64,000 bases of DNA from positions 212,464 to 276,463 of the forward strand of contig CAWHAE010000020.1 in NCBI GenBank assembly GCA_963827235.1, in the 5' to 3' direction. The stretch comes from an uncultured bacterium. Its GTDB lineage: Bacteria; Chloroflexota; UBA5177; JANWHV01. Shown in pieces: positions 6,574-30,901 of the stretch. Position 1 is the stretch's first letter, and each line of letters opens with the position of its first letter. The position numbers were made by a program, and so were the translations under genes. The notes under the pieces were generated by a model that did no database searches, was not told where the DNA came from, and saw nothing but the letters and a program-made list of their open reading frames with translations.

Positions 6574-6648
6574 TGGAGCGGAAGACCGGGATCGAACCGG
6601 CGACCCTCTCCTTGGCAAGGAGATGCTCTACCACTGAGCCACTTCCGC
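6574..6648 (-). tRNA. tRNA-Gly(GCC)
   Basis: GCGGAAG acceptor stem, anticodon arm TCTCC-TTGCCAA-GGAGA, GTTCGAT T-loop, encoded CCA. Confidence 0.97.
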
Positions 6649-6652
6649 ATCG

Positions 6653-6728
6653 TGGTGCCGAGACCCAGATTTGAACTGGGGACACCCGCATTTTCAGTGC
6701 GGTGCTCTACCAACTGAGCTATCTCGGC
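6653..6728 (-). tRNA. tRNA-Phe(GAA)
   Basis: GCCGAGA acceptor stem, anticodon arm CCGCA-CTGAAAA-TGCGG, GTTCAAAT T-loop, encoded CCA. Confidence 0.97.
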
Positions 6729-24388: not shown

Positions 24389-25201
24389 GTGTCGTTGCGC
24401 TACAAGCTGATCGTTCTGGACCTCGACGGCACTTTGCTCGATGGGCAGAAGAAGATCTCCGCGCGCACCCGCACCACGCTGGAACGCGCCCGGGCCGACG
24501 GTGCGGCCGTGGCGATTGCAACCGGCCGCAGCTTCGCCATGGCGCGCCACTTTGTCGATGGGTTTCCTCTCAACGGGCCGCAAATCACCTACAACGGGGC
24601 GGCGATTGTCGATCCTGTTACGGGTAGGCCCCTGTATCTTCAGGCCCTTCCTGGGCGCCTCGTAGGCCCTGTAATCGATTTTCTGCGTGACCAGCGTGTG
24701 TTTACGTCCTACTTTGCTGAAGAGGAAGTGTACGTACGCCATCGGTCCAGTCTCGAGCACGCCTTGGTGCCGCCTGAAATGCCGCCTGCGGTAGAGGTAG
24801 CCGACTTCGACGAGCTACGCCATTTGCCGGCAATCAAGATCGTCGCCACCGCCGCCCGCGAGCGTATAGACACCCTGCGGCCCGTGGCCGAGTCGGCATT
24901 CGGGGCCGATCTCTACGTGACGCGAACGGATGCTGTCCTGCTGGAGTTTCTGCATCCCTCGGTCTCCAAGGGCACGGCGCTCAAGCGGGTGATCAAGTTG
25001 CTCGACCTCAGTGCTGAAGACGTGATCGCCTTTGGCGACAGCCACAACGATCTTGAGCTGCTGCAGATCGCGGGTACCGGCGTGGCCATGGGTAACGCGG
25101 TTGACGAGGTGCGCGCAATGGCCGACATCGTGGCGCCGCCGAACACTGACGATGGAGTGGCCAGGGTACTCGAGACGGTGCTGTGGCCCGATTCCCCGTA
25201 G
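24389..25201 (+). CDS. Cof-type HAD-IIB hydrolase
   Basis: DLDGTLL, ATGR, SKG and FGDSHND motifs. Confidence 0.93.
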   Translation: MSLRYKLIVLDLDGTLLDGQKKISARTRTTLERARADGAAVAIATGRSFAMARHFVDGFPLNGPQITYNGAAIVDPVTGRPLYLQALPGRLVGPVIDFLRDQRVFTSYFAEEEVYVRHRSSLEHALVPPEMPPAVEVADFDELRHLPAIKIVATAARERIDTLRPVAESAFGADLYVTRTDAVLLEFLHPSVSKGTALKRVIKLLDLSAEDVIAFGDSHNDLELLQIAGTGVAMGNAVDEVRAMADIVAPPNTDDGVARVLETVLWPDSP

Positions 25202-25264: not shown

Positions 25265-26743
25265 ATGGTGCCCCGATGTCAGCGCCCGGTCCGCCGTGTC
25301 CTGCTGTGTTTGGCCTCTACCGCGATCCTTGCTGCCGCTCTACTGCCGGGTCCCGGCGCCTCCGCGGCCCAGGTGCCCCGCCCCGGGCGCGCGTTCCGGT
25401 CGCTCTCGCTGATCTACCCCGGTTCGCAGGTAATGTCTGTTGACTACCAGACTTCCGCCGCACCCGCGCTGCCGCGCGAAGCAGTAGCATCGGCCATGGC
25501 GCCGGACGGCCGGGCTCGCCACGGTACGACTACGACCATCGGGCTATCCCGAAGCGGTGACGGGATCAGGCTGAATGCCGCCACGCCTATCGCTACCGGG
25601 CCGGCTGCCGGCGCATCGCCCACGCCAATCGTCACGCATTATTCTCTTGCCGCTGCCTGGCCCATGGCCGGGCACGACCCGGGACAAAGCTTCGCCGACG
25701 TGCTGGGCAGCGTCGTTCCCGGTGCCGTTCCGCTACTGCACCTTCGCTGGCAGGCCCAGGGGTTGGTGCCGCAGATCGAGGCGGGGGGTCTCCTCTATGC
25801 GATCAACGCTAACTCGCAGGTCGAGTCGTTGGACGCGGCCGGAGGCACCGTGGGCCGCACCTATCAGTCGCCGGGAGTCGTGGGCCTGGCCTACCAGGCA
25901 CCCTATCTCTACGTGAACAGGTCTTCTGAGATTCGCATCGTCGATGCGGCGACGGCGGGCTGGTCGAATTCCGCCACCGATTCTGTGGGAGATGCTACGC
26001 CCACGTTCTCTTCGCTGATCGTGAGTGGGCGGCAGATCTTTACTGGATCCGGCCCTGCTTCGCCCACCTCGCTGGCCAGTTTCTACTCTTTCGACGCTCA
26101 GTCGGGCAACAAGTTGTGGCAGCATCCCGGCAGCTTCACGTCTACGCCGTGCCTGGCATACGGCACGTTGTACGTGAGTTACGGACCCTTCGGCAGCATG
26201 GACACATACGTGATTGATGCGGCGAACGGCTTTCAGTTCCGCGAGTTCAAGAAGCTCGGCGCAATCCAGTGGAATGCGGCGGGTGACAGGGTGTATGCCA
26301 GCGTCCTGTCCGGGCCGCCCGATCGTCTGCGCGCCTCGGTACGGGCATACGATCGTTTCGGTAAGCCACGGTGGGTCGCTCATAACATCCTGTTCGGCGC
26401 TGCCCTGCCCGAGATGATGTTTGGCATAGCGCCCGGCGGTGTGGACGCGCGCAGCGCTCTCGATGGGCACCGGTTGTGGCGAACCGATCTGCCGGGGCTG
26501 AACGCGATCTCGTCTGGCACGGTGGCGGTTTCCGGTGACCTTATCGTCGTGCAGGCGGACGACGGAGTGCTCCGGCTGCTCGATCGCGACACAGGGCTAC
26601 TCGTCCGCACGCTGAAGCCTCCATTCGTGGCCACGTTGGCGCGCAACCTCCTAGTCGGTGGCGGGATCATCTTCGAGAGCGTGACCCCCGTGCATCCGGG
26701 AGGGAAGGCCGGGCCAGCCACCCTGCTTGCCTTTGGTCCTTGA
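25265..26743 (+). CDS. Secreted PQQ-like beta-propeller protein
   Basis: Signal peptide; WPMAGHD; repeated DA..G...W motifs. Confidence 0.75.
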   Translation: MVPRCQRPVRRVLLCLASTAILAAALLPGPGASAAQVPRPGRAFRSLSLIYPGSQVMSVDYQTSAAPALPREAVASAMAPDGRARHGTTTTIGLSRSGDGIRLNAATPIATGPAAGASPTPIVTHYSLAAAWPMAGHDPGQSFADVLGSVVPGAVPLLHLRWQAQGLVPQIEAGGLLYAINANSQVESLDAAGGTVGRTYQSPGVVGLAYQAPYLYVNRSSEIRIVDAATAGWSNSATDSVGDATPTFSSLIVSGRQIFTGSGPASPTSLASFYSFDAQSGNKLWQHPGSFTSTPCLAYGTLYVSYGPFGSMDTYVIDAANGFQFREFKKLGAIQWNAAGDRVYASVLSGPPDRLRASVRAYDRFGKPRWVAHNILFGAALPEMMFGIAPGGVDARSALDGHRLWRTDLPGLNAISSGTVAVSGDLIVVQADDGVLRLLDRDTGLLVRTLKPPFVATLARNLLVGGGIIFESVTPVHPGGKAGPATLLAFGP

Positions 26744-27002
26744 CGTCCGTCGAGTAGCCTGGCGCCGGGCAGTGCCCGCCGGGCGTGCCGGTCGATGGAG
26801 TTCCGCGCGGGAGGCTCGCGCACTGGCACAGGGTGCCTGCTGCCGGCGTGACAACTGTAACTAAATCCGCATGATAATGCGCTCACGAGCATACTCATGC
26901 ATCGGTGACGTATCGCACCGTCACTCGACGGTGCCGCAATTGTGGCGCCGGGCTGAGCAGAAAAGGCGACCGGAATTGCTACGTCCGTGCGCGCCAAGGG
27001 CC

Positions 27003-27031
27003 TTGACATGTGAAAAATGGAGGCGTAGCAT
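27003..27031 (+). promoter_or_regulatory. Near-consensus sigma70 promoter
   Basis: TTGACA-17 bp-TAGCAT, with no long ORF downstream on this strand. Confidence 0.75.
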
Positions 27032-27037
27032 GACCTT

Positions 27038-27427
27038 AGTGCGAGGGCATCCGGAGGCTGACAGCCTCCTATCCACCGCCTGGAAAGGAGACTTCCTATG
27101 TATAGTTTGAGGAAGCCGCACCTTTTCTTCGGAGTCCTTCAGGTCGACTAGCACCTGCTCGGCCGGACGGTAGTAGCTAGGAACAAGCTCGCCGAAACGT
27201 GTCGAGGGCGAAAGCAGGATTCCACCCACGGGCCGGTCATCGGTCCAACGCCGGCGTTACGAATAGGCCCTTGAGCCTTTGCACTTTCGATCGACGCAGG
27301 CAGCGATGAATTCGTACTGGTGATCGGCCCCCGTTCTGCACTGTGTGAGGTGTTAGCAAAACAAGCACACGAGCAAGCGGTAGGTAAAAGTAAACGAGAG
27401 GGAGTCGTGTGCGCGACTCCCTCTCGT
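27038..27427 (+). ncRNA. Candidate structured ncRNA, possibly Ms1-like
   Basis: Promoter upstream; several long-range helices; ordered CTAGCAC, CACCCACG and GAATAGGC motifs; ends at or before a strong hairpin (see findings). Confidence 0.6.
27385..27427 (-). terminator. Intrinsic terminator of the PRTase gene (hairpin may also stop the plus-strand RNA)
   Basis: 14-bp stem ACGAGAGGGAGTCG/CGACTCCCTCTCGT with TTTACTTTT tail on the minus strand. Confidence 0.85.
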
Positions 27428-27454
27428 CATGTACTCAGCACGCGAAGACGCGCC

Positions 27455-27925
27455 TCAGCGTTCTCGATCCCACGGATAGACGAGCCAATCGTCGGTGGCC
27501 TCGGCGTAGAAGTCTGGGTGTTCGTTGTTGTACCGCGAACGACCGGGCTTGAAGTGCAGCACGGCCACCTTGTAGTGGCACCTCACTGCGTCCAGGCGCT
27601 CTTTCACCGCCATGATCGTGCGCCCGCTATCCCATACGTCGTCCACTACGAGCACGCGCTTCCCGGCCAGCAATGTGTCGGTAGGAAACTGAAGGAAGAT
27701 CGGGGTGTCGAGCGTCTGGTCGACGTCGGTGTAGTAGACAACCGCGGCGACCAGAATGTTCCGCAGGTCGATCTTCTCGCTGATCAGGCAGCCCGGCACC
27801 ATGCCCCCTCGAGTGATGACCAGCATGGCCTCATAGGTGTCGGACAGATACGTCCTGATCAGGTGATCGACCAGACGTTGAATCTCCTCCCAGCTAAGTA
27901 GCCGCTTGACCAGTGTCTTCTCCAT
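27455..27925 (-). CDS. Type I phosphoribosyltransferase (xanthine/hypoxanthine-guanine PRTase-like)
   Basis: LSWEE, ITRGG, VLVVDDVWDSGRT and WLVYPW motifs. Confidence 0.92.
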   Translation of the reverse strand: MEKTLVKRLLSWEEIQRLVDHLIRTYLSDTYEAMLVITRGGMVPGCLISEKIDLRNILVAAVVYYTDVDQTLDTPIFLQFPTDTLLAGKRVLVVDDVWDSGRTIMAVKERLDAVRCHYKVAVLHFKPGRSRYNNEHPDFYAEATDDWLVYPWDRER

Positions 27926-27928
27926 ACG

Positions 27929-28495
27929 TTACGGCAATCCCCTGATAATTGGCGTCGGCGAGGGGCCGGCGGAGCGTGTCGTGACCGTGGGCTCTCCGGC
28001 TGGCCCGGACTTGCGCCGGATCTGGTCGATCGCGTTCTGGAACTCCACGGCACCGTTGTCGATCTGGCTGGACGCGCGCTGAACTTCCGTCCGGCTGCTG
28101 GTGCGCAGACCGAGCACCAGTGTGTTCGTGCCAACCGAGAGATCGGTCAAGCTCTTGACGAAGAGCTTGGCTGTTGCCTTCACCTCCGCCGGGATCGGCG
28201 TAGTCTGCTGGAATCGCACCAGCTCGCCCGAGAACTCGTCCGCCGTCTTCGATACCCCGGTAACATCGTTCCTCTGTATGGAGTTGCCGAGGTTGTTGAG
28301 CGAGGCGATAGTGTCGGTCACTATCGGCAAGATGCGGCCCTGCCAGACGAGGACCGCCGTCGATTGGTTGTAGCTCGCGGACGTGCCACCGGCCCGTGGA
28401 GCCTGGGCGTAGACTCGCACACTGCCGGCTGCGAACCCAACGACGCTGGCGGCTACGAGACAGCGTGCCAGGCGCGAACGTAGAACGGTGTTCAT
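27929..28495 (-). CDS. Secreted helical-bundle hypothetical protein
   Basis: GGAGG RBS; signal-peptide-like N-terminus ending VYA-Q; amphipathic helices. Confidence 0.7.
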   Translation of the reverse strand: MNTVLRSRLARCLVAASVVGFAAGSVRVYAQAPRAGGTSASYNQSTAVLVWQGRILPIVTDTIASLNNLGNSIQRNDVTGVSKTADEFSGELVRFQQTTPIPAEVKATAKLFVKSLTDLSVGTNTLVLGLRTSSRTEVQRASSQIDNGAVEFQNAIDQIRRKSGPAGEPTVTTRSAGPSPTPIIRGLP

Positions 28496-28963
28496 GGCTC
28501 CTCCACCGGCTGAGTGGGCAAACGTCGGAGCGATCGTAACAGCAGCCATCGGCTATGTCAAAATGACTCGCGTGGTGGCTGTGTGCCTTAGTGTACGGTA
28601 GCAGGCCTATTCCTGCCAGCGCCATCGCACGCAAATGTGCTGCTGCGACCCGGAACTTCATTGGCGAAGTGCGCGGAGGGCAACGTGGCCGCTACTCCGG
28701 GTACGACGGGCATCCTGGGGTCGGTCGTCATCGTGCCCGACCCTTCGCTCACCCCGACGCACCGGCTCCCGGGACCGTGGCCATCTCGCCCGCTCGCCGG
28801 TCACCACGAGGTGGCGAGCCGCCGAACGTCCCGCCACTTCGCGGATCCTGCCGCGGACGGTATGGTCGCCGTCGGCCGCCCAACCCGGCGCCCGCGTCGT
28901 GTCGTATGGTATAACGGTGACGAGGCGCAAGCCGGGAGTGATCATGATCGGGAGGGCACGCCT

Positions 28964-29410: not shown

Positions 29411-30901
29411 ATGTGGCGATTCAGACTCATTCGCTTCCGGCTCACCCTCACCTACACCATCTTCCTGGCAACGGCCTTCACGGCGTTCAGTATGGGCATT
29501 CTCTTTGGACTGAATGCCATTCTCAACGACAACTACGACCAGAAGATGCAGAATGCGGCCGATCAGATCGTCAGCCAGTATACGATACTGCAGAAGTACA
29601 ACTACTACCCGAACATCGGCGTCACGCTTACTGTCTCCAAGAAGACGGTCGGTGGTGACCAGAGCCCCCTACCGTCAGAGAATTACCAGTTCCTCAACGC
29701 CAATGGTCAGCCGATTCGCGGTGGCCAGAGTAAGCAGCCCGACCCGAAGCTCTCCACCAATCCGAAACTCAAACAGACCGTCAAGAAGGCACTCATCTCC
29801 AACTCACCGCAGAGCCTCACCGTCGCCGGCAACAACGGCGACACCAGTGTCGTCGTGGTTCCAACCGGCGCCGACCAGGCGGTGCTCGTCTACGAAGCAT
29901 CGCGGCAAGGCGTGGAAGACACGATCACGGTCATGAAGGAGATCATGATCCTCGCCGTGGTGGTGATGACTATCCTCTCCGCGATCGGTGCCTGGGTGCT
30001 CACCGGGCGCGTGCTGCGCCCCATCGACCGCATGAGCGAGCGCGTGCGCCGCATCTCCATTCGCGACCTCAGCGAGCGGTTTCATATGGATCAGCCGGAC
30101 GAGCTCGGCAGGCTTGCTTCGACCTTCGACGACATGATCTCCCGGCTTCAGGCTTCCGTGGAGCGCCAGAAGCGCTTCACGTCCGACGCTTCACACGAGC
30201 TGCGCACGCCCCTGACGGTGATGCAGGCGGATATCGACCTCGCGCTGCGCCGTCCTCGCACTGCCGATGAGTACCGTGAGACGCTCGAAAGCGCCCAGGA
30301 GGAAGTGACGAGGCTGTCGCGTATCGTCTCCGACCTGCTTGTCCTGACCAGGCTGGATACCGACGCCTCGTTCGTCGAGCACGAGCCGGTGGCGCTTGAC
30401 GAGCTCCTGGACAGCGTAGTTTCGGGCATGAAACCGCTTGCTCGCGAGGGGGAGATCCTGCTGAGCTACTGGTTCAGCGCGCCCATAACCATCATGGGCG
30501 ACGTAACGCGACTGAAGCAGCTTTTCATCAATTTGCTGGACAACGCGATCAAGTATACGTCGACAGGCGGCGCTGTTCACGTAGCCATGGAGCCGCTGCC
30601 CGACACCATCAAGGTGATTGTCTCGGATACCGGCATGGGTATTGAGCCCGAGCATCTGCCGCACATCTTCGAGCGCTTCTACCGCGCTGACCAGGCGCGA
30701 TCGCGCAGCCATGAGGGTACCGGTCTCGGTCTCGCCATAGCAATGAGTGCCGTCCGGGCTCACCATGGGGATATCGATGTGGTGAGCAGGCCGGGCTTCG
30801 GCACGACGTTCACCGTGACGTTGCCGTACGGCGGCGTTCTTGCTGCAGAGATGCCCGATTCGGGCAAGCTCGTCCGCTTGCCCCTGTCGGCGGCCAGCTG
30901 A
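29411..30901 (+). CDS. HAMP-HisKA-HATPase sensor kinase (type that pairs with OmpR-family regulators)
   Basis: Two TMs; DASHELRTPL, NLLDNAIKY, DTGMGI, IFERFYR and GTGLGL motifs. Confidence 0.95.
   Translation: MWRFRLIRFRLTLTYTIFLATAFTAFSMGILFGLNAILNDNYDQKMQNAADQIVSQYTILQKYNYYPNIGVTLTVSKKTVGGDQSPLPSENYQFLNANGQPIRGGQSKQPDPKLSTNPKLKQTVKKALISNSPQSLTVAGNNGDTSVVVVPTGADQAVLVYEASRQGVEDTITVMKEIMILAVVVMTILSAIGAWVLTGRVLRPIDRMSERVRRISIRDLSERFHMDQPDELGRLASTFDDMISRLQASVERQKRFTSDASHELRTPLTVMQADIDLALRRPRTADEYRETLESAQEEVTRLSRIVSDLLVLTRLDTDASFVEHEPVALDELLDSVVSGMKPLAREGEILLSYWFSAPITIMGDVTRLKQLFINLLDNAIKYTSTGGAVHVAMEPLPDTIKVIVSDTGMGIEPEHLPHIFERFYRADQARSRSHEGTGLGLAIAMSAVRAHHGDIDVVSRPGFGTTFTVTLPYGGVLAAEMPDSGKLVRLPLSAAS

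Follow-up and report, generated by a model that had tools for sequence, protein, structure and literature searches.

Introduction

Arrest and leader peptides such as TnaC, ErmBL/ErmCL and SecM are encoded by short frames and control a downstream gene in cis, and the type I toxin mRNAs hok and ibs are structured, stand-alone messages for very small hydrophobic peptides that come with an antisense RNA. The dual-function small RNAs, among them Spot 42/SpfP, RNAIII/delta-haemolysin, SgrS/SgrT and SR1/SR1P, are independent short transcripts with a tiny frame and conserved structure; the frame in Spot 42 encodes the 15-residue SpfP (PMC8916003). Here we describe a locus that resembles each of these systems in part. 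It is located at positions 27003 to 27427 of a stretch of 64,000 nucleotides (nt), hereafter the window, from an uncultured Chloroflexota bacterium (GenBank assembly GCA_963827235.1, contig CAWHAE010000020.1, positions 212,464 to 276,463), and it is a divergent member of an undescribed family of micro-frame RNAs scattered over the phylum Chloroflexota.

With the arrest and leader peptides, the locus shares a short frame in which a conserved motif, flanked on both sides by variable residues, ends abruptly at one codon and RNA structure lies right behind it, but it has no regulated gene downstream, and stalling is here a prediction only. It is similar to hok and ibs in structure, size and copy number, but its peptide is not hydrophobic. 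The dual-function small RNAs have no sequence relation to it and differ in that the hairpin here stands at a fixed distance from a codon and the family spans a phylum; we know of no described dual-function RNA that combines a hairpin locked to a codon with phylum-wide spread. Transfer-messenger RNA (tmRNA) is also abundant and structured, measures about 350 nt and contains a short frame in its interior, but the frame at our locus has its own Shine-Dalgarno site and AUG. The tmRNA model RF00023 matches elsewhere in the genome (C16, 166.5 bits), not at this locus, where the Rfam search found no tRNA-like domain.

A first-pass annotation, made from the sequence alone, had read the locus either as a relative of the actinobacterial RNA Ms1 or as a new class of structured non-coding RNA. 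As described in the papers cited here, Ms1 and its counterparts MTS2823 and scr3559 are about 300 nt long, abundant and transcribed from a primary-sigma-type promoter of their own (PMC4191392, PMC9130861), in which respects our RNA is alike. Ms1 forms a long double-stranded hairpin closed by both ends, the conserved central bubble of which is required for binding of the RNA polymerase core (PMC4191392), is abundant in stationary phase (PMC4191392, PMC9130861) and is flanked by a HAD-IB hydrolase gene (PMC9130861).

A Frame of 17 Codons

The best-conserved part of the RNA is a frame of 17 codons, MYSLRKPHLFFGVLQVD followed by a TAG stop (27098-27151, plus strand), of which the core G-V-L-Q-V-D occupies 27131-27148. 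The Shine-Dalgarno region, GGAAAGGAG (27082-27090, plus strand), is situated 7 nt 5' of the ATG, and its GGAG is present in every copy of our alignment A6. A BLASTN search of 61 related genomes returned matches solely in five genomes of the window's genus and at two more places in the window's own genome (G000), and the part shared by the copies was 27022-27149, not the 3' half of the RNA. These seven related copies carry no ascertainment bias towards codons and provide the unbiased coding test. Their variable columns were distributed over the three codon positions as 9/4/13, and the codon differences within the frame were 82 synonymous to 92 non-synonymous, as compared to 35/136, 7/157, 29/145, 42/122 and 11/160 in the other five frames.

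The stop codons TAG, TAA and TGA were each seen among the copies, the third position of the Val codons is taken by any of the four bases, and insertions or deletions were present in both untranslated regions but not within the frame. In L017, the start codon is located two codons later and has its own GGGAGG ahead, such that the Shine-Dalgarno site and the start shift together. The frame makes use of two codons that are rare in the window's genome, where GGA accounts for 12.7% of the Gly codons and AGG for 6.9% of the Arg codons: of 15 distinct copies, all 15 contain GGA and 11 contain AGG. Outside the pattern-selected set described below, GGA is usual, not invariant, being replaced by GGG in L192 and L200 and by GGT in L165. 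Sequestration of the Shine-Dalgarno region by 27122-27128 (codons 9-11) was indistinguishable from slid registers. From the sequence, we infer that the frame is translated.

The first-pass annotation was right that no long plus-strand frame follows the promoter, but it overlooked this conserved 17-codon frame and its Shine-Dalgarno site. Searches of Pfam and NCBIfam at E-values up to 10 returned no family for six peptides, five of them from the wide family, and a literature search for the peptide strings of the window's lineage and for GVWQVD found neither in any paper of the library searched. Three copies with slightly different peptides are present in G000 and two in its nearest relative, G001 (84% mean column identity). 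The assembly of G000 is 95.9% complete with 9% contamination, and its three copies therefore need not share one cell line.

Distribution Across Chloroflexota

Strict DNA patterns at first pointed to a single genus, in addition to 11 metagenome loci. A protein-level search with a 20-residue query from the window gave weak matches in another family, and one of these, used as a query in turn, identified 8 of 66 genomes of a second class. A peptide profile of 17 rows matched 47 of 401 genomes at E-values up to 0.05, a threshold at which about 20 false matches are expected, and 22 of its matches were below 1e-3. With a profile of 42 rows, the family was identified in 37 of the 401 sampled Chloroflexota genomes at E-values up to 0.001, representing 28 of 217 genera (36 of 400 genomes if the unpublished genome G226 is excluded), while many large families of the phylum yielded no match. 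Profile searches of this kind favour amino-acid conservation by selection.

A DNA pattern based on the core retrieved at least 120 stretches and placed the family in more than 100 species-representative genomes, from the Dehalococcoidia, Thermomicrobia, Chloroflexia, Anaerolineae and soil lineages. The pattern imposed the core, the GGA codon, the presence of GCCC and a spacing of 3-10 nt to it, but set no constraint on the position of the spacing inside this range, on residues other than those of the core or on the architecture. Among the 80 match titles listed, 68 were Dehalococcoidia, Chloroflexia, Anaerolineaceae, Thermoflexaceae or "Chloroflexi/Chloroflexota" and 6 were Thermomicrobia, which are a separate phylum at NCBI and are placed inside the Chloroflexota by GTDB. 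Five of the six non-Chloroflexota titles among these 80 were matches inside frames of 324-567 amino acids; another such title, L224 (labelled Leptospirales), has a 13-codon frame and a weak ribosome-binding site. A ribosome-binding site with a frame of at most 45 codons was present in 105 of 120 listed loci. Fifteen wide-family loci had no match in Rfam at E-values up to 0.1, except for one tRNA.

A second DNA pattern, based on the 3' core, was discarded: nearly all of its 117 stretches were chance matches in GC-rich genomes, and the covariance model R1 (see below) confirmed only known members. L151 (Bacillota) proved to be a chance match within a frame, and L043 (Ktedonobacteraceae) a coding tandem repeat hit by chance by the 3'-core pattern. 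The latter (L043, 1552-1673) is a 95-nt tandem repeat in a proline- and serine-rich coding region of a Ktedonobacteraceae contig.

Anatomy of the Wide Family

The frames of the family have 13-17 codons, and their last six residues, G-V-[W/L/F]-Q-[V/I]-D, are nearly invariant. The commonest frame has 14 codons (51 of the 105 listed loci) and reads M-[RK]-L-H-x-[LIV]-[FYLW]-G-V-W-Q-V-D-x, and the stretch before the core is exactly 7 residues long in 73 of the 105. The segment R-K-P-H-L-F-F-G-V-L-Q-V-D in the window aligns with this usual form and is preceded by four extra N-terminal residues. Over the listed loci, the positional entropy is 0 across GVWQVD, where the pattern imposed it, 3.3 at the next residue and 1.5-2.9 across the seven preceding residues. 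The frames stop 0-1 residues past the Asp in 72 of the 105 listed loci and run on through the hairpin for 3-25 unrelated residues in 33; the stop position is therefore not the conserved feature. At the second codon past the Asp, TGG (Trp) replaces the usual stop in 9 of the 105 listed loci, and the readthrough of the hairpin is then x-W-G-P.

The distance between the Asp codon and the hairpin is kept. GCCC starts 7 nt past the Asp codon in 94 of 104 listed loci, with 3-10 nt permitted by the pattern, and the same spacing was seen in profile-found loci, even where the stop directly follows the Asp; in the window's genus, GCYC starts 7-8 nt past the Asp. The 48 nt after the Asp fold with -12 kcal/mol or better in 103 of the 105 listed loci. 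The base of the hairpin, GCCC/GGGC, is invariant, and the inner pairs covary (UA 17, UG 13, CG 9; and GC 23, AU 8, GU 6).

Behind the hairpin lies a 3' domain, the closing helix of which, UCAGG/CCUGA, was paired in 45 of 45 alignment cells, with a compensated UCGGG/CCCGA in L165. More distant members have the variants CCGGG with CUCCGG and UCCGG with CCGGA. A T-tract terminator follows the 3' domain in 70 of the 96 listed loci with enough flank, and the predicted length of the RNA is about 260 nt (252-310) for the 32 listed loci that also scored in a strict promoter scan.

Transcription Unit and Expression

In the window, the unit begins with a strong sigma-70-type promoter on the plus strand (27003-27031), in which TTGACA (27003-27008) and TAGCAT (27026-27031) are separated by a 17-nt spacer. 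This promoter, already proposed by the first-pass annotation, agrees with the consensus at 10 of 12 positions in a consensus scan, and a comparable promoter is located 95-114 nt 5' of the ATG in 15 of 17 copies. The region contains 2 promoter-like sites, as compared to 0.1 expected from shuffles. Judging by the position of the promoter, transcription would start near 27038. At the other end, a GC hairpin of 14 base pairs (bp; 27394-27427, assigned to neither strand) closes the unit as a shared, bidirectional terminator with a convergent phosphoribosyltransferase gene (27455-27925, minus strand). Its terminator score was obtained on the minus strand, which has the T-rich tail, and the plus strand is without a T tract; a comparable terminal hairpin is present in 17 of 17 copies, several of them with T-rich tails on the plus strand.

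The conservation between G001 and the window spans the unit from the -35 box to the terminal hairpin, and because it starts and ends at these two elements we consider the transcription unit to be real. The 390-nt stretch folds with -163 kcal/mol, as compared to -138 +/- 5.8 kcal/mol in shuffled sequences (z = -4.3; none of 100 shuffles equalled it). Since the promoter, the 5' hairpin, one long-range helix and the terminal hairpin are real, the locus is a stand-alone transcription unit of about 390 nt. Rfam gave no match to the RNA region of the window at the gathering score, and at E-values up to 10 just four chance matches to microRNA families, on hairpins, in 26700-27500.

Expression was assessed from four RNA libraries of four studies, namely a wetland, a peat and two soil metatranscriptomes. 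The run index comprised 24 runs (22 RNA libraries, 14 studies), each with 0.04 of the sampled words, and the other 20 runs count as no evidence. Contigs with 80-95% identity over 27038-27359 were present in all four libraries, none of which had a contig on 26900-27037 or on 27360-27560, despite the conserved end of the neighbouring gene within the latter segment. The contigs do not extend 5' of about 27031-27051, and their lengths are 66-361 nt, with 13 of the 24 listed records at 288-361 nt and word depths of up to about 600; one contig of 331 nt spans 27051-27337. The best-covered stretches were 27108-27149, in the frame, and 27236-27279, in the core of the 3' domain D3 (see below). Relatives of the window copy are represented among the short contigs of high depth in soil and peat metatranscriptomes. 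The contigs fit an abundant, discrete RNA in these relatives; they come without strand or exact ends, and library DNA is not formally excluded as their source.

RNA Domains in the Genus of the Window

The 5' hairpin HP1 (GGAGGCU/GAC/AGCCUCC; 27053-27069, plus strand), which was noted in the first-pass annotation, is supported by covariation: 85.7% of 105 cells were paired, 4 of 7 pairs had changed on both sides and none of 500 shuffles matched the covariation score. Directly after the stop codon, the long irregular hairpin D2 (27154-27218, plus strand) has a main helix formed by CUCGGC (27158-27163) and GUCGAG (27201-27206). The hairpin begins 1-8 nt 3' of the stop in 15 of 15 copies and shows compensatory changes inside subgroups, and its counterpart in the wide family is the GCCC...GGGC hairpin with the covarying inner pairs.

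The third domain, D3 (27230-27330, plus strand), is a junction of the helices P1 (27230-27244/27316-27330), P2 (27250-27257/27294-27301), P3 (27265-27268/27275-27278, with the loop CCUUGA) and P4 (27303-27306/27312-27315). In this domain, 89.3% of 300 cells were paired, as compared to 34-52% with slid partners, and 12 of 30 pairs had changed on both sides, a number reached by none of 500 shuffles. The 15-bp helix P1, with 9 of 15 pairs changed on both sides, contains the 12-bp helix 27230-27241/27319-27330 of the first-pass annotation, and the local hairpin P4 was paired in 100% of cells. The covariance model built from D3, R1, gave matches confined to the genus (g1) and its metagenomic relatives: 5 of 21 genomes of the class and 3 of 151 genomes of the phylum, one of the latter at chance level. 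As R1 has no credible match outside genus g1, it is the 3' domain that has diverged and not the family that is narrow.

Collecting homologues and testing for covariation, as had been proposed, thus yielded covarying helices in HP1 and D3, and the early view of a promoter-driven structured RNA without previous description agrees with the conserved unit, the covarying helices, the lack of an Rfam match and the short, deep contigs of the RNA libraries. Several of the originally proposed pairings fared less well. The helix 27258-27264/27310-27316 was paired in 61% of cells, without covariation, and competes with P4. The helix 27154-27159/27213-27218 was seen to form in the window and in L014, but not in G001. 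For the pairing of the 5' end with 27275-27285, the inner GAGGGC/GCCUUU is retained in 64% of cells (27-50% in slid controls) but the rest is not, and the pairing competes with P3; the alternative partner of the 5' end, 27333-27342, is already changed in G001. Two pairings considered in this study were also rejected. A 5-bp pairing between UCARG in the frame (27139-27143) and CUUGA in the P3 loop (27270-27274), seen as G.U, A-U or G-C and never as A.C, was backed by too few independent events, and G002, C12 and C14 lack it; the closing helix 27070-27080/27377-27386 of the minimum-energy fold is kept in G001 alone.

Proposed Function and Alternative Explanations

The explanation that we favour, tentatively and with a probability of about 0.45, is that the locus is a ribosome-engaging module in which the peptide and the hairpin pause the ribosome in cis and thereby set the state of the attached RNA. 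A pause in cis is favoured because the motif ends at one codon, the sequence beyond that codon is tolerated and the structure is locked to the codon. These three features mark nascent-peptide pausing modules, and a free peptide does not require them. Two of them, the end of conservation at a single codon and the constant spacing of the structure behind it (7 nt in 94 of 104 listed loci), are as in the known arrest and leader peptides. The base of the hairpin is about 11 nt away from the first base of the Asp codon, a distance that would place it at the mRNA entry of the ribosome when this codon is in the P site. The entire chain of 13-17 residues would at that moment still be within the exit tunnel, and peptide and hairpin might then jointly pause or arrest the ribosome. 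A ribosome positioned at the Asp would melt the base of the hairpin and could in this way set the fold, stability or activity of the 3' domain. Such a module would be of the leader-peptide type, with the RNA itself as its output instead of a downstream gene.

Several points weigh against a pause in cis. No regulated gene was found in cis downstream of the frame, neither in the window nor in 18 wide-family loci, and to our knowledge every characterised arrest or leader peptide has one; stalling itself is a prediction, and the state of the 3' domain as output is conjecture. The 3' domain is lineage-specific, and R1 misses the wide family, so homology between D3 and the wide-family domain is only putative. 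In the window, the hairpin is offset by 5 or 9 nt, depending on the helix counted. Moreover, the core and the GGA codon were part of the DNA pattern searched for, the profiles select for amino-acid conservation and the RNA-library contigs have neither strand nor true ends. The fixed spacing could also serve RNA folding alone.

The main alternative, quite possible if somewhat doubtful, is that the RNA is instead an ordinary, very abundant mRNA for a small protein, perhaps with a dual function. The peptide of 13-17 residues would then act in trans on a conserved cellular partner, and the hairpins and 3' domain would chiefly lend stability to the message or have a base-pairing activity of their own. 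Like the dual-function RNAs, for which Spot 42/SpfP is a precedent (PMC8916003), the locus is an independent short transcript with a small frame under purifying selection. A peptide acting in trans accounts equally well for the strong ribosome-binding site, for the paralogues with slightly different peptides (three in G000, two in G001) and for the abundance suggested by the deep RNA-library contigs. It accords less well with the very short length of the peptide, with the unrelated C-terminal extensions of 3-25 residues in 33 of the 105 listed members and with the lack of a partner gene in conserved synteny; furthermore, the hairpin keeps its distance to the Asp and not to the stop, which a mere stabiliser need not do. 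We consider it improbable that the frame encodes a precursor whose C-terminal core is matured into a modified peptide, cofactor or pheromone and exported by enzymes encoded elsewhere, although a short frame that has a basic N-terminus, ends in a conserved core and is present in multiple copies would suit such a role. In the lineage of the window, the RNA is followed by the convergent phosphoribosyltransferase gene, a protein of about 200 amino acids and a HAMP histidine kinase, which may sense the product if it is a pheromone, and this order from RNA to kinase is preserved in the divergent loci L012 and L022 despite a differing left flank. The paralogues in the window's genome are located elsewhere, without the kinase neighbourhood; no peptide family was matched, no maturase was found in the flanks of the window or of the wide-family loci examined, and no neighbouring maturase, transporter or receptor is conserved across lineages.

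The remaining alternatives are further removed from the evidence. A purely non-coding structured RNA, for example an RNA-polymerase-binding analogue of Ms1 or 6S RNA in which constraints on the RNA conserve the frame, is very improbable. Abundance, structure and a length of about 260-390 nt would agree with it, as would GGA and AGGAAG, which are kept beyond coding needs, and the failure to detect 6S RNA in the window's class. It is contradicted by the 3-nt periodicity, the four third bases of the Val codons, the interchangeable stops and the constant Shine-Dalgarno spacing, and helices closing the 5' end onto the 3' end are not conserved. As for Ms1 itself, none of its testable features was found here: there is no match to the Rfam model, no rod-with-bubble fold, no non-coding character and no HAD-IB flank. 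The fold has several domains, a coding frame with a ribosome-binding site is the best-conserved part and the flanks are variable. Of the three motifs initially described as Ms1-like, which were assessed within this family, all are present in the sequence but the first two already differ in G001; one of them, UAGCAC, is the stop codon of the frame plus 3 nt. The identification as an Ms1-type RNA is therefore abandoned, and a new class of structured RNA holds insofar as the RNA is structured and without earlier description, but not as a simply non-coding one. The negative Rfam result for Ms1 carries little weight, since Rfam detects Ms1 only near mycobacteria (PMC9130861).

Our RNA and Ms1 both occur in lineages without detected 6S RNA, in the case of Ms1 as stated in the papers cited above. 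The 6S RNA model (RF00013) had no match in the RNA region or in G000, in a search whose control was detected in just 5 of 14 known genomes; it was found in 0 of 21 genomes of the window's class, as compared to 14 of 40 genomes from the phylum's other classes. Although 6S RNA and the family did not overlap among 61 genomes, most families of the phylum have neither RNA, and the distribution is therefore no argument for a substitute for 6S RNA or Ms1; with 37 of 401 genomes containing the family, it is not convincingly complementary to that of 6S RNA.

We assign very little likelihood to the RNA being a type I toxin message, stable and structured. The stand-alone structured message, the several copies in one genome and the patchy distribution are reminiscent of such toxins, but the peptide is too short and polar for a membrane span, and no antisense promoter is conserved (2 of 17 copies have one, at differing places). 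Just as hard to sustain is a classical leader peptide or attenuator of a downstream gene, despite the short frame with a hairpin and then a terminator behind it. In the window, in both paralogues and in 9 of 18 wide-family loci, the frame that comes next lies on the other strand, and the flanking genes in the wide family are unrelated, including those for rubrerythrin, gamma-glutamyltranspeptidase, a MoxR ATPase, 2-hydroxyacid dehydrogenase, a cation efflux protein, an FGGY kinase and an integrase, among others. The unrelated flanks and the opposite orientation of the next frame in these loci thus indicate a stand-alone gene and not a leader.

Returning to the pause in cis, a more far-reaching version of it would see a ribosome-gated small RNA across the Chloroflexota, built from a nascent-peptide-plus-hairpin stall module that has been uncoupled from a downstream gene. 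Such a module would sense translation capacity, an amino acid or a small molecule that binds in the tunnel, and would switch an RNA domain that acts in trans; this version we regard as unlikely. Micro-frames of 13-17 codons escape gene callers, and the Chloroflexota have barely been explored for RNA biology. If pausing is confirmed, the family would represent a leader-peptide sensor with an RNA and no gene as its output, and if the peptide acts in trans, it would be among the smallest conserved bacterial proteins. Either way, the family offers a testable object for research on small proteins and ribosome stalling in an environmentally dominant phylum.

Genomic Neighbourhood and Minor Observations

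On the right side of the RNA and the phosphoribosyltransferase gene, the protein of about 200 amino acids (27929-28549, minus strand) has a hydrophobic stretch at its N-terminus and matches no family, and the sensor kinase (29411-30901, plus strand) has a HAMP-HisKA-HATPase architecture. On the left side, the spacer of 260 nt upstream of the RNA, which is not conserved with G001, contains a second, weaker promoter-like site (GTGACA-16-CATGAT, 26848-26881) and, on the minus strand, a small hairpin resembling a terminator. A Cof-type HAD-IIB gene is located two genes upstream of the RNA (24389-25201), not adjacent to it.

A likeness to PqqA, suggested by the N-terminus WKKP of some members, found no support in peptide-family or enzyme searches. 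PqqC was not found in a search whose control was silent everywhere, and for PqqE just generic radical-SAM matches below the cut-off were obtained. Two adjacent radical-SAM-like frames of 408 and 371 amino acids with such sub-threshold PqqE matches are present in G000 (C21:16691-18912), unlinked to the RNA.

The family member in L200 has a tRNA gene and an integrase frame of the phage type as neighbours (356-1225 and 389-461), which hints at an integration site for this copy. The window also contains a complete rRNA operon with 5S, 23S, a spacer tRNA and 16S, as well as two further tRNA genes (37834-42963, minus strand; 41280-41353; 6577-6728).

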